From: a virus
Taxonomy: Duplodnaviria > Heunggongvirae > Uroviricota > Caudoviricetes
DNA: 5,312 nt
Reading direction: 5' to 3' (one strand)
IMG/VR virus record: IMGVR_UViG_2713896777_000013
The translations under genes and the position numbers were made by a program. Below are positions 661 to 5,197 of this stretch, piece after piece (positions within the stretch are counted from its first letter, which is position 1; every line of letters starts with the position of its first letter). The notes under the pieces were generated by a model, which did not search any database, was not told the DNA's origin, and was given only the letters and a program-made list of their open reading frames with translations.

Positions 661-1083
661 ATGTTTCTGAAAACAGAACAATTTGAATATAACGGTGTGT
701 CCGTCACGCTTTCCGAATTGTCTGCGCTGCAGCGGTTTGATTATATAAAGTTTGTTTCAGACGCAGAACAACAGGAGACAACGAAGCATGATGTCGTGCA
801 CATTAACCAGCGATATCTGGAAACGGCATCCCTGCTTGTGGCGATGTCGCTATGGCATTCCCATTCCCTCAAAGGCACTCTGGCCTCTCCGGAGACAGAG
901 ATGCAGCAGATCCGCCGTGAAGTGATGCTGGGATGGCCTGCTGATGCACTGAATCAGGCAACGAACCGGGTGCTTTATCTTTCAGGTATGCTGGATAACC
1001 GGCACGATGCCGATCCTGAACAAACCGGGAAAGCAGAAGCGACTGAGCCGGTAACATCAAAAAAGCATTCGAAGGCGAGCTGA
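661..1083 (+). CDS. G: Tail assembly chaperone gpG-like
   Basis: ATG at 661 with GGAGG at 650-654. 140 aa product starting MFLKTEQFEYNGVSVTLSELSALQR.., collinear with lambda gpG (MFLKTESFEHNGVTVTLSELSALQR..); TGA at 1081-1083. Immediately follows V. Confidence 0.92.
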   Translation: MFLKTEQFEYNGVSVTLSELSALQRFDYIKFVSDAEQQETTKHDVVHINQRYLETASLLVAMSLWHSHSLKGTLASPETEMQQIRREVMLGWPADALNQATNRVLYLSGMLDNRHDADPEQTGKAEATEPVTSKKHSKAS

Positions 1084-1523
1084 ACTTTGTCCTGAAACTG
1101 GCGCGAGAGATGGGGAGACCCGACTGGCGCGCCATGCTTGCCGGGATGACATCCACCGAATATGCCGACTGGCGACGTTTTTACTGCACGCATTATTTTC
1201 AGGATACCCAACTGGACGCTCATTTTTCCGGGCTGATGTACGCCGTACTCAGCCTGTTTTTTGGCGATCCGGATATGCATCCGGCGGATTTCAGTCTGCT
1301 TGCTCCAGCGTGTGAGGAAGAGCAGACGGAGATGCCGGACGAGGAAGAAATGCTGATGCAGAAAGCGACAGGAGTTGCCGGAGGCGTCCGGTTCGGAGGG
1401 GACGGAGGGCGCGATATTTCACCTTCTGCGGATGTGGTGGATGTCAGCGAGGATGATGTTGCATTAATGATGGCTTCAGCGGGGATTTCCGGAGGTGTGA
1501 GATATGTCCCAGCCAGCGGGTGA
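661..1523 (+). CDS. T: Tail assembly chaperone G-T fusion, made by programmed -1 ribosomal frameshift near the 3' end of G (G frame 661..~1065, then -1 frame to the stop at 1521-1523)
   Basis: The -1 frame (frame 0) is open from 1047 to TGA at 1521-1523 and encodes ..AFEGELNFVLKLAREMGRPDWRAMLAGMTSTEYADWRRFY.., lambda gpT-like. The T frame has no convincing independent start before the homology begins. Slippery heptamer A_AAA_AAG lies in the G frame at 1059-1065. Predicted fusion about 287 aa. Confidence 0.85.
1059..1065 (+). other. Putative -1 programmed ribosomal frameshift slippery heptamer A_AAA_AAG (G to G-T recoding signal)
   Basis: In the G frame the codons are TCA(1057-1059) AAA(1060-1062) AAG(1063-1065), giving an X_XXY_YYZ heptamer at 1059-1065. 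It is the only such heptamer between the frame-0 stop at 1044-1046 and the G stop at 1081-1083. Confidence 0.7.
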
Positions 1524-4116
1524 TCTGGTTATTGATTTGAGTCTGGATGCGGCCCGGTTTGATGAACAGATGGCCCGGGTACACCGTCATTTTTCCAGTC
1601 TGGAGGCGGATGCCAGAAAAACCGCCAGTACTGTTGAACAGGGGCTGAGCCGACAGGCGCTGGCTGCACAAAAAGCCGGGATATCAGTCGGACAGTATAA
1701 GGCTGCCATGCGCACACTGCCCGCACAGTTCACGGATATTGTCACTCAGCTTGCCGGTGGTCAGAATCCCTTCCTTATCATGCTGCAGCAGGGGGGGCAG
1801 ATCAGCGATTCATTCGGTGGACCGCTCAGCCTGCTTACCCTGCTGAAGGAGGAACTTCTCGGGATCAGGGATGCCTCTGAATCATCAGAGGAGTCGCTGT
1901 CAGATACGGCAAATGCACTGGCTGAAAATGCCCGGAATGCCGGTGAGCTGGGACGATTTATGTCGGTGGCCCGTGTGGCGGCAGGTGGCGGGGTTGCCGT
2001 ACTGGCCGCGCTTGCTGCCGCCGCCTGGCAGGCAGAGCAGGCTGACCGGGCCTTATTGCGTTCACTGATCCTGACCGGAGGGGCGGCTGCCACCACAACG
2101 GCAGAATTGTGGAAAATGGCCGGGGTGATCAGCGATGAAGCCGGTGGTGGTATCAGACAGGCGGCAGAAAATCTGGCCCGTCTGGCAGAAAGCGGGAAAT
2201 ATACCGCCGGGCAGCTACGGATCATGGGGGAAACCTCTCAGAGATGGCTGCAGACGGTGGGGGACGATGCCGGGAAGGTGGAAAAAGCCTTTGAAGGGAT
2301 TGCAGCAGATCCGGTGAAGGCGCTGGCCTCCCTGAATCAGCAGTATAACTTCCTGAGCGTTTCCCAGTTACGCCATATTGATGAGCTTGAGCGCACGAAA
2401 GGTAAACAGGCTGCGGTGACGGAGGCGATGTCCCTGTTTGCGGATGTCATGAATGCACGTCTGGAGCAACTTGATAAAGCGGCCACGCCGGTGGAAAAAA
2501 TCTGGGACGATGTTAAAACCTGGACTTCTGACGCATGGGCATGGATAGGTGATCATACACTGGGGGCACTCAGTCTGATCACTGACGTGGTGGCCGGAAC
2601 CGTTGAACAAGTGAAGCTGCTGCTTGTGCAGGGGGATCTGGCGCTGGCTGAATTTATTCAGTCAGCCTGGGAAACGACAAAGAATGTGCCCGGCGTTGGT
2701 GCGTTGTTTGGTGAACTGGCAGAAGAGAACCGCGTATTTATTGAGAAAACAAAACGCGATGAACTGGCGCTGAGAAAATCCATTGCGGAACGGGATGCGC
2801 GTATACGCCAGGGGGAAATGGGGTACATCAACCGCTCGCGTGCAACAGGCGTCAGCAAAGGTCCTGGGCAGCAGGAAGCCGTCAGCCGTCTGGCTGAAGA
2901 GCTGACAGGTAAAAAGCATACATCACCGAAAACGCGCTCTGCCGGGGAGAGGGAAGAGGAGCAGGCAAGAGAGGCTCTGCTTGCCCTTGAAGCTGAGCTC
3001 AGGACGCTGGAAAAACACAGCGGTGCGAATGAGAAAATCAGTCGGCAGCGCCGTGATTTATGGAAGGCGGAAAGTCAGTATGCGGTCCTGAAAGAGGCTG
3101 CCACGAAACGGCAGTTATCCTGGCAGGAAAAATCCCTGCTGGCCCATGAGAAAGAGACGCTGGAGTACAAACGCCAGCTGGCTGACCTGGGCGACAAGGT
3201 TGAACACCAGAAACGCCTGAATGAGCTGGCACAGCAGGCGGTGCGGTTTGAAGAGCAGCAGAGCGCGAAGCAGGCCGCCATCAGCGCAAAAGCCCGCGGT
3301 CTCACTGACCGTCAGGCGCAGCGGGAGTCTGAAGCGCAGCGTCTTCGGGACGTGTACGGTGATAATCCGCAGGCGCTGGCCCGGGTCACTGGGGCACTGA
3401 AACAGACATGGGCGGATGAAGACATGCTGCGCGGTGACTGGCTGGCCGGGCTGAAGTCCGGCTGGGGGGAGTGGGCGGAAAGTGCGACGGACAGTTTTTC
3501 GCAGGTTAAAAGTGCTGCCACGCAGACCTTTGACGGTATTGCACAGAATATGGCGGCGATGCTGACCGGTGCAGAGGCAGACTGGCGGGGATTCACCCGT
3601 TCGGTGCTGTCCATGATGACAGAAATCCTGCTTAAACAGGCCATGGTGGGCATTGTCGGGCGTATCGGCAGCGCCATTGGCGGTGCTTTCGGTGGTGGTG
3701 CATCTGCTTCCTCGGGGACGGCCATTGAGGCTGCGGCGGCGAACTTCCATTTCGCGACCGGAGGATTTACGGGGACGGGCGGCAAATATGAGCCTGCGGG
3801 GATAGTTCACCGCGGGGAGTTTGTTTTCACGAAAGAGGCAACCAGCCGGATAGGTGTGGGGAATCTTTACCGTCTGATGCGCGGCTATGCGGAAGGTGGT
3901 TATGTGGGTGGTGCCGGAAGTCCGGCGCAGATGCGGCGGGCGGAAGGTATTAATTTTAATCAGAACAATCACGTGGTGATTCAGAACGACGGTATCAACG
4001 GACAGGCGGGGCCGCAGCTGATGAAGGCGGTGTATGACATGGCCCGCAAGGGGGCGCAGGATGAGATTCAGGCGCAGATGCGTGATGGCGGCGTCTTTTC
4101 CGGAGGCAGGCGATGA
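1504..4116 (+). CDS. H: Tail tape measure protein gpH-like (870 aa)
   Basis: ATG at 1504 with GGAGG at 1491-1495. N-terminus MSQPAGDLVIDLSLDAARFDEQMARVHRHF.. and C-terminal third (..ALLALEAELRTLEKHSGANEKISRQRRDLWKAESQ....GGKYEPAGIVHRGEFVFTKEATSRIGVGNLYRLMRGYA..QMRDGGVFSGGRR) are collinear with recalled lambda gpH. Overlaps the end of T by 20 nt; TGA at 4114-4116. Confidence 0.95.
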   Translation: MSQPAGDLVIDLSLDAARFDEQMARVHRHFSSLEADARKTASTVEQGLSRQALAAQKAGISVGQYKAAMRTLPAQFTDIVTQLAGGQNPFLIMLQQGGQISDSFGGPLSLLTLLKEELLGIRDASESSEESLSDTANALAENARNAGELGRFMSVARVAAGGGVAVLAALAAAAWQAEQADRALLRSLILTGGAAATTTAELWKMAGVISDEAGGGIRQAAENLARLAESGKYTAGQLRIMGETSQRWLQTVGDDAGKVEKAFEGIAADPVKALASLNQQYNFLSVSQLRHIDELERTKGKQAAVTEAMSLFADVMNARLEQLDKAATPVEKIWDDVKTWTSDAWAWIGDHTLGALSLITDVVAGTVEQVKLLLVQGDLALAEFIQSAWETTKNVPGVGALFGELAEENRVFIEKTKRDELALRKSIAERDARIRQGEMGYINRSRATGVSKGPGQQEAVSRLAEELTGKKHTSPKTRSAGEREEEQAREALLALEAELRTLEKHSGANEKISRQRRDLWKAESQYAVLKEAATKRQLSWQEKSLLAHEKETLEYKRQLADLGDKVEHQKRLNELAQQAVRFEEQQSAKQAAISAKARGLTDRQAQRESEAQRLRDVYGDNPQALARVTGALKQTWADEDMLRGDWLAGLKSGWGEWAESATDSFSQVKSAATQTFDGIAQNMAAMLTGAEADWRGFTRSVLSMMTEILLKQAMVGIVGRIGSAIGGAFGGGASASSGTAIEAAAANFHFATGGFTGTGGKYEPAGIVHRGEFVFTKEATSRIGVGNLYRLMRGYAEGGYVGGAGSPAQMRRAEGINFNQNNHVVIQNDGINGQAGPQLMKAVYDMARKGAQDEIQAQMRDGGVFSGGRR

Positions 4117-4442
4117 AAACATTTCGCTGGAAAGTGAAGCCGGATATGGAGGTGAACTCGCAGCCATCGGTGCGTGAAGTGCGTTTTGGTGACGGGTACT
4201 CACAGCGTATGGCGGCAGGGCTGAATGCTGACCTGAAAACATACCGTGTGACGCTTTCCGTGACCCGGGAGGAGGCCCGGCATCTGGAAGCGTTCCTGGC
4301 AGAGCACGGAGGCTGGAAGGCATTTTTGTGGAAGCCACCCTATGCATACCGGCAGATAAAGGTGACCTGTGCCGGGTGGTCTGCGCGGGTCGGGATGTTG
4401 CGCGTTGAGTTCAGCGCGGAGTTTAAGCAGGTGGTGAACTGA
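4113..4442 (+). CDS. M: Minor tail protein gpM-like
   Basis: ATG at 4113 overlaps the H stop (ATGA); GGAGG at 4102-4106. 109 aa MKTFRWKVKPDMEVNSQPSVREVRFGDGYSQR...RVEFSAEFKQVVN is near-identical in pattern to lambda gpM. Confidence 0.95.
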   Translation: MKTFRWKVKPDMEVNSQPSVREVRFGDGYSQRMAAGLNADLKTYRVTLSVTREEARHLEAFLAEHGGWKAFLWKPPYAYRQIKVTCAGWSARVGMLRVEFSAEFKQVVN

Positions 4443-5197
4443 TGCAGGATATTCACGAAGAAAGTCTGAACGNNNNNNNNNNNNNNNNNNNNNNNNNNNN
4501 NNNNNNNNNNNNNNNNNNNNNNCTGAACGAGTCGGTTAAATCAGAGCAGTCACCGCGGGTGGTACTCTGGGAAATCGACCTGACGGTACAGGGTGGTGAG
4601 CGGTATTTTTTCTGCAATGAGCTGAATGAAAAAGGGGAGGCGGTTACCTGGCAGGGGCGGCAATATCAGGCATACCCGATTGACGGCAGTGGCTTTGAGA
4701 TGAACGGGAAGGGCAGCAGTGCCNGNCCGTCGCTGACGGTGTCGAATCTGTTNGGTCTGGTCACCGGNATGGCGGAGGACCTGCAGAGCCTGGTGGGGGC
4801 CACGGTGGTCCGCCGCCGGGTGTATGCGCGTTTTCTGGATGCGGTGAATTTCGTTGCGGGCAATCCGGAGGCGGACCCGGAGCAGGAGCTGAGTGACCGC
4901 TGGGTGGTGGAGCAGATGTCGCAGCTGACAGCCATGACGGCCTCGTTTGTGCTGGCTACACCGACCGAGACGGATGGGGCGCTGTTTCCCGGTCGCATCA
5001 TGCTGGCGAACACCTGTATGTGGGATTACCGGGGAGATGAATGCGGGTATAACGGTCCTGCGGTGGCGGATGAGTTCGATAAACCCACCACCGATATCCG
5101 TAAGGACAGATGCAGCAAGTGCATGCGCGGGTGTGAGATGCGCGGCATGGTGGCTAATTTTGGCGGTTTCCTTTCCATTAACAAACTTTCGCAGTAA
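4442..5197 (+). CDS. L: Minor tail protein gpL-like (tail tip; conserved C-terminal Cys cluster), containing a 50-N assembly gap and four ambiguous bases
   Basis: ATG at 4442 overlaps the M stop (TGATG); AGGTGG at 4429-4434. MQDIHEESLN..VVLWEIDLTVQGGERYFFCNE..GRIMLANTCMWDYRGDECGY..FGGFLSINKLSQ is collinear with lambda gpL; TAA at 5195-5197. With the N-run and the duplicated 7 bp removed the product would be about 232 aa, as in lambda. Confidence 0.93.
   Translation: MQDIHEESLNXXXXXXXXXXXXXXXXXLNESVKSEQSPRVVLWEIDLTVQGGERYFFCNELNEKGEAVTWQGRQYQAYPIDGSGFEMNGKGSSAXPSLTVSNLXGLVTXMAEDLQSLVGATVVRRRVYARFLDAVNFVAGNPEADPEQELSDRWVVEQMSQLTAMTASFVLATPTETDGALFPGRIMLANTCMWDYRGDECGYNGPAVADEFDKPTTDIRKDRCSKCMRGCEMRGMVANFGGFLSINKLSQ
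4473..4522. other. Assembly gap (50 N) inside gene L, flanked by a duplicated 7-bp CTGAACG
   Basis: Run of N from 4473 to 4522; CTGAACG occurs at 4466-4472 and again at 4523-4529. Confidence 0.95.

Follow-up and report, generated by a model that had tools for sequence, protein, structure and literature searches.

The heptamer GGGAAAG at positions 1027-1033 of the stretch analysed here (5,312 nucleotides, hereafter the window) is very probably an incidental, nonfunctional motif, the by-product of codons for Gly-Lys-Ala. The poorly conserved C-terminal linker of this clade's gpG has these three residues, encoded GGG AAA GCA, which yields the seven letters. The motif stands in the wrong phase for tandem -1 slippage, and the stop from which the T frame opens lies downstream of it; it lacks a positional counterpart in lambda and other relatives and drifts freely among close ones. 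The functional element nearby would be a lambda-type G/GT -1 frameshift at A_AAA_AAG (1059-1065), at the same position as the lambda G_GGA_AAG and the N15/phi80 G_GAA_AAG. We infer that ribosomes slip there, and not above background at 1027-1033.

The window and its G-T cassette

The window comprises the tail-assembly module of a lambdoid prophage. Its features are listed below; the assignments of H and L come from gene order, and that of H also from annotation in close relatives.

285-647: C-terminal part of V, with a Big_2 domain, upstream of G
661-1083, + strand: G, tail assembly chaperone, 140 aa (PF06894 Phage_TAC_2, E = 6.5e-35); the zero frame, holding both heptamers
1027-1033, + strand: GGGAAAG, phased GGG_AAA_G, that is Gly123, Lys124 and the first base of Ala125 of G
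1044-1046, + strand: -1-frame TGA, bounding the open T frame on the 5' side
1052-1054, + strand: TAA in the +1 frame, a dead end for any +1 slip at GGG_AAA_G
1059-1065, + strand: A_AAA_AAG, in-phase X_XXY_YYZ heptamer, putative G/GT -1 frameshift site, homologous in position to the lambda G_GGA_AAG
1065-1523, + strand: T, read in -1 to G, with 152 codons and a stop (PF06223 Phage_tail_T, E = 1.2e-11)
1504-4116: 870-aa open reading frame standing where H, the tape measure gene, would be (gene order, and annotation of close relatives as tape measure protein H)
4113-4442: M (PF05939)
4442-5197: 251-aa open reading frame at the position of lambda L, with X residues from an N run (gene order)

Over 648-1530, identity is 99.9% to Stx1a-converting phages (LC645428) and about 94% to CP-1639 and ASU11; to lambda it is about 77% in the best-aligned parts. 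Of 5426 complete E. coli genomes, 644 contain the 120-nt stretch 991-1110, frequently in several of their prophages. The window is from an E. coli Stx-type lambdoid prophage that has the well-known G/GT programmed -1 frameshift cassette. One record labelled as a C. jejuni phage, MW057783.1 (“Campylobacter phage CJLB-4”), has an identity and a score equal to those of the lambda genomes, with coordinates that are nearly so; it looks like lambda DNA and not a Campylobacter phage, possibly a sequencing control or a contamination.

The source is a draft scaffold with runs of N at 212-284 and 4473-4522 and single Ns at 4724, 4726, 4753 and 4768. In the complete Stx1a phage LC645428, 231 nt occupy the place of the 73-N run in V, and V consequently changes frame across it. 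The 50-N run in L proves spurious when set against the same phage: the contig ends on its two sides overlap by 7 nt, so that CTGAACG is duplicated and L is inflated from 232 to 251 codons.

The lambda G/GT programmed -1 ribosomal frameshift was reportedly described by Levin, Hendrix and Casjens in 1993. Two later papers give its slip site as G_GGA_AAG (PMC5009743, PMC3296357), and the same papers put reading in the zero frame at about 96% and the G:GT ratio at 30:1, the lambda fusion thus amounting to a few percent of gpG, a ratio important for tail assembly (PMC3296357, PMC5009743). The window resembles lambda in its gene order (V-G-T-H-M-L), in the families to which G (PF06894) and T (PF06223) belong, in a heptamer that stands five sense codons before the G stop, and in a -1 product that is homologous from the first post-slip codon; its upstream motif, moreover, has the same seven letters as the lambda site. 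The difference lies in the working heptamer, which is A_AAA_AAG in the window and G_GGA_AAG in lambda.

Within the cassette (661-1523), an open reading frame homologous to gpG is preceded by the C-terminus of V and followed by the open reading frame at the tape measure position. The T domain, in the -1 frame, overlaps the 3' end of G, and the overlap contains an in-phase slippery heptamer, in the place that is conserved in the family. The open stretch of the T frame is 1047-1523; since it does not begin before 1047, a productive slip must fall within 1047-1083. The only slippery heptamer in that interval is A_AAA_AAG, present as a single copy in the window and starting 25 nt from the end of G; the sequence-only reading had placed the real slip site downstream of GGGAAAG, and this heptamer does lie there. 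Translation in the -1 frame from 1059 gives KKAFEGELNFVLKLAREMGRPDWRAMLAGM in the window and GKVFDGELSFALKLAREMGRPDWRAMLAGM in lambda. In the -1 frame, homology with lambda T sets in exactly at 1059 (window T-frame AFEGELNFVLKLAREMGRPDWRAMLAGM, compared with lambda VFDGELSFALKLAREMGRPDWRAMLAGM), and upstream of the heptamer the -1 frames of the four phages compared are unrelated and contain stops. By its sequence, the locus belongs to the lambda G/GT frameshift family as an ordinary member, one with a dnaX-type heptamer, and its G-T fusion would consist of residues 1-135 of G followed by 152 T-frame residues, 287 aa in all.

The slip site at 1059-1065 is the same A_AAA_AAG heptamer as that of E. 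coli dnaX, a sequence decoded twice by a single tRNA-Lys (PMC5009743). In contrast to dnaX, the window is without a Shine-Dalgarno (SD) element some 10 nt upstream and has a strong hairpin 33 nt downstream. N15, phi80 and mEp213 (AF064539, FN582354, PQ299149), for which G_GAA_AAG is annotated, share with the window the position of the heptamer relative to the G stop and a conserved T frame; they differ in the type of heptamer and in lacking an upstream GGGAAAG.

Phase of the upstream heptamer and its alignment with lambda

The sequence-only reading had described GGGAAAG as phased GGG_AAA_G and not G_GGA_AAG, and this holds: (1027-661)/3 = 122, which makes GGG codon 123 and AAA codon 124 of G. 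The -1 frame, read from 1026 as R E S R S D *, closes as described at the TGA of 1044-1046, the fifth codon past the two would-be slipping codons, and it was rightly concluded that the G-T product cannot be made from here, as the phase is wrong and the -1 frame meets this TGA. The sequence fits the seven-base form XXXYYYZ and fails the X_XXY_YYZ zero-frame phasing that tandem -1 slippage requires (PMC10861913). Its slipped codons would be CGG and GAA, each of which is, as read from the sequence, non-cognate at the first position (mismatched or wobble-paired). The motif lies outside the G/T overlap, 32 nt upstream of the working site, and has no open -1 frame into the downstream coding region, given the TGA at 1044-1046. 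Since the 32-nt offset between the two heptamers of the window is not a multiple of three, they necessarily differ in phase, and no event is needed to bring this about.

It had also been proposed that the motif is the relic of an ancestral slip site displaced by a 1-nt phase change. The letters are indeed those of the lambda slip site, and they lie just 32 nt upstream of the working one. The comparison with lambda, however, leaves no place for such a displacement. The window and lambda G proteins, both of 140 aa, are 43% identical and align with no gaps over their whole length, stop included, which leaves no phase change between them. The 3' codons of G are as follows:

Window: GAA CAA ACC GGG AAA GCA GAA GCG ACT GAG CCG GTA ACA TCA AAA AAG CAT TCG AAG GCG AGC TGA
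Lambda: GAA CAG ACA GAG GAC GCC GGG CCC GCA GAG CCT GTT TCT GCG GGA AAG TGT TCG ACG GTG AGC TGA

The gapless register of a MAFFT nucleotide alignment, in which lambda GCGGGAAAG falls opposite window TCAAAAAAG, matches this codon comparison and has no indel between heptamer and stop, nor any between the two sites. The window GGGAAAG (1027-1033) is aligned to lambda GAG GAC G, and the lambda G_GGA_AAG is aligned to the window A_AAA_AAG (1059-1065). To the question raised by the sequence-only reading, whether the lambda heptamer is homologous to 1027-1033, the answer is that it is homologous to 1059-1065; because this is so in a gapless alignment, the relic explanation is refuted by the criterion which that reading had itself set. 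The protein, codon and nucleotide alignments behind this rejection took in lambda, N15 and phi80 together with 130 further unique G genes. The slip position is, furthermore, constant in 130 of 133 unique relatives across three heptamer types, and the upstream motif is confined to one shallow clade. That a G_GGA_AAG once stood at 1027-1033, was dephased by a 1-nt indel and was then replaced downstream is thus extremely unlikely.

An internal duplication of the heptamers was considered as well, both being followed by GCA and sharing AAAGCA. It was rejected on the 32-nt offset, which is not a multiple of 3, and on the gapless alignment with lambda; for the same two reasons, the shared AAAGCA is a coincidence.

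The heptamer would be in phase if the true sequence were one base longer or shorter, and a scaffold with N runs and single N calls invites the suspicion of a sequencing or assembly error. The 3' end of G, however, is identical in 33 of the loci compared, among them a complete Stx1a phage genome; the stretch 991-1110 recurs in the 644 complete E. coli genomes, a match of at least 99% is given by 278 records, and the zero frame preserves the family's C-terminal motif EPVT..K.S.AS*. A sequence correction that shifts the phase, which the sequence-only reading had allowed for, is excluded by these independent assemblies, and the probability of such an error is to all purposes nil.

Variation of the two heptamers among relatives

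Our census drew on GenBank phages and three IMG/VR scans; it comprises 221 loci in which G is recognisable, and these reduce to 133 unique G sequences. In 130 of these, an in-phase heptamer has its first base exactly 25 nt from the end of G: GGAAAAG (the N15/phi80 type) in 62, GGGAAAG (the lambda type) in 39 and AAAAAAG (the window's clade) in 29. One further gene has the same heptamer at 13 nt, owing to an earlier stop. The remaining two, both from IMG/VR (L194 and L200), have degenerate heptamers at -25, G_GCA_AAG and A_GAA_AAG, which keep only the A-site A_AAG tetramer or lose even the P-site re-pairing.

A slip site at the counterpart of 1027-1033 is present in none of the 133 unique G genes, and among them the out-of-phase GGGAAAG at that position occurs only in the window's own shallow clade, a distribution from which it follows that the motif is derived and not ancestral. 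Neither the heptamer nor its position is conserved among the relatives: GGTAAAG and GGGAAAA variants occur, lambda has GAGGACG, and outside the clade the motif is absent. The census indicates that the position of the slip site is fixed while its letters have turned over, and that the upstream motif arose recently, as a by-product specific to this lineage.

There are 72 loci in the A_AAA_AAG clade, with 28 unique G sequences of 91-100% identity, in which 57 of 423 sites are polymorphic. At 1027-1033, the GGGAAAG allele is carried by 51 loci, a GGGAAAA allele (1033 G>A, Ala>Thr) by 13, CP-1639 included, and a GGTAAAG allele (1029 G>T, synonymous) by 8; the loci are related, and these counts do not represent independent evolutionary events. 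The upstream motif thus has two polymorphic sites in its seven positions, where stretches of 7 nt average 0.95; A_AAA_AAG has none in seven and is invariant in all 28 unique clade sequences. In ASU11-type relatives (L004, L073-L075), a T>A change at base 1044 has removed the -1 stop and the frame is open back to 1020. The G/T overlap is there enlarged to take in GGGAAAG, which remains out of phase. To judge from this variation, neither the upstream motif nor the -1 dead end is under visible constraint.

These data also bear on the idea that the motif is a functional site of abortive frameshifting, at which low +1 slippage (re-pairing on GGA AAG) or -1 slippage would yield a truncated gpG and tune the dosage of the chaperone. 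Re-pairing after a +1 slip would be possible for both tRNAs, as far as the sequence tells (GGG to GGA, AAA to AAG), and both alternative frames end quickly. Known +1 sites, however, use a slow A-site codon, either hungry or stop, and here the A site has neither; -1 re-pairing would be non-cognate at the first position of both codons. In otherwise near-identical prophages, moreover, 8 loci have lost the motif to a synonymous change and 13 to G>A, the ASU11-type relatives lack the -1 TGA as well, and all other family branches among the 133 unique G genes are without the motif. Basal slippage is widespread in E. coli, and in reporters non-programmed -1 slippage was detected at roughly half of the codons surveyed (PMC10861913); some basal slippage at 1027-1033 is therefore possible. 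We nevertheless regard a functional abortive site as very improbable. A more elaborate proposal, that GGG_AAA_G supports a small, selected, non-canonical slippage (+1 to GGA AAG, or near-cognate -1) which aborts some gpG shortly ahead of the true slip site and so contributes to the G:GT ratio of a clade whose heptamer has become the very shifty A_AAA_AAG, is exceedingly improbable.

Some lambda-like G genes with the canonical G_GGA_AAG also have an in-phase A_AAA_AAG early in G, as GA A AAA AAG (Glu-Lys-Lys), at 708-714 in the coordinates of those loci, within codons 36-38. It is found in L100, L103, L112, L115, L126-L142 and similar loci (10 unique sequences), and its -1 frame meets a TGA one codon on. 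Unlike the GGGAAAG of 1027-1033, this highly shifty sequence could plausibly cause abortive frameshifting.

RNA signals, chance expectation and annotation

Another role for the G-rich motif would be that of an upstream stimulator, which pairs with the anti-Shine-Dalgarno (anti-SD) sequence of 16S rRNA and boosts slippage at A_AAA_AAG in the manner of dnaX. GGGAAAG is in fact the best anti-SD match in 980-1066. Its predicted duplex, however, reaches only -4.3 kcal/mol, compared with -7.3 for the dnaX AGGGAG and -12.8 for a consensus SD. The dnaX SD-like element acts at about 10 nt, whereas GGGAAAG ends 24-27 nt before the A_AAA_AAG heptamer, and it is not conserved and is missing from lambda and N15. 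Stimulation of this kind is barely conceivable, and the motif is better taken as incidental.

As for structure, the RNA around the motif and the slip site is unstructured, with 1034-1100 folding worse than its shuffled versions (z = +1.8), and no Rfam family was found in the window at gathering thresholds. Downstream of the slip site there is a hairpin at 1099-1134 (-34.4 kcal/mol for 1066-1150, z = -3.46), whose nucleotides hardly vary across lambda, N15 and a Klebsiella phage. Its start, 33 nt past the heptamer, is too distant for a stimulator of the classical kind. The same region also codes for the conserved T motif LAREMGRPDWRAM, so that structural and coding constraints are inseparable here. 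In the single-sequence fold, no hairpin starts 5-9 nt downstream of A_AAA_AAG; an outer stem, 1073-1080/1136-1143, which would leave a 7-nt spacer, is weakly supported, appearing in the alignment fold only and with one A-U/G-C covarying pair (5:4 sequences).

The sequence-only reading had also left room for chance, and here the counts are in its favour. The window has one copy of GGGAAAG against 1.10 expected, and at least one occurs in 134 of 200 dinucleotide-preserving shuffles of the window. Any Gly-Lys followed by a codon that starts with G can yield the motif; given the protein sequence (...T-G-K-A...), it is contained in 23% of synonymous-codon resamplings of the 40 upstream codons. When the codon order of these 40 is shuffled, it appears in 1.0%, and a first-order Markov estimate for one occurrence per 100 nt is 0.8-2.2%. 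The unconditioned probability that a GGGAAAG falls in the 100 nt before the real slip site is thus only about 1-2%, so the coincidence is not trivial a priori. This figure, however, is post hoc and concerns one among many patterns that might have been flagged, which makes the coincidence a mild one.

As an incidental by-product of Gly-Lys-Ala, the flagged heptamer is of little biological weight. For scans that seek recoding sites, the letters of a heptamer are meaningless without phase, a position in a frame overlap and positional conservation.

The A_AAA_AAG site is entirely predictable from lambda, yet it is unannotated in the examined records of a very common E. coli clade (644/5426), since all the annotated records examined treat G and T separately and give no joined product. 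No paper giving this clade's A_AAA_AAG as a G-T site turned up in the literature collection searched. The clade records that carry annotation (the RefSeq genome NZ_AP018808, CP-1639, ASU11 and Stx2_14040) present G and T as separate CDSs without a joined G-T product, and the start that they give for T is an internal ATG, at window position 1110. The slip site is marked in the records of phi80, N15 and LLS.
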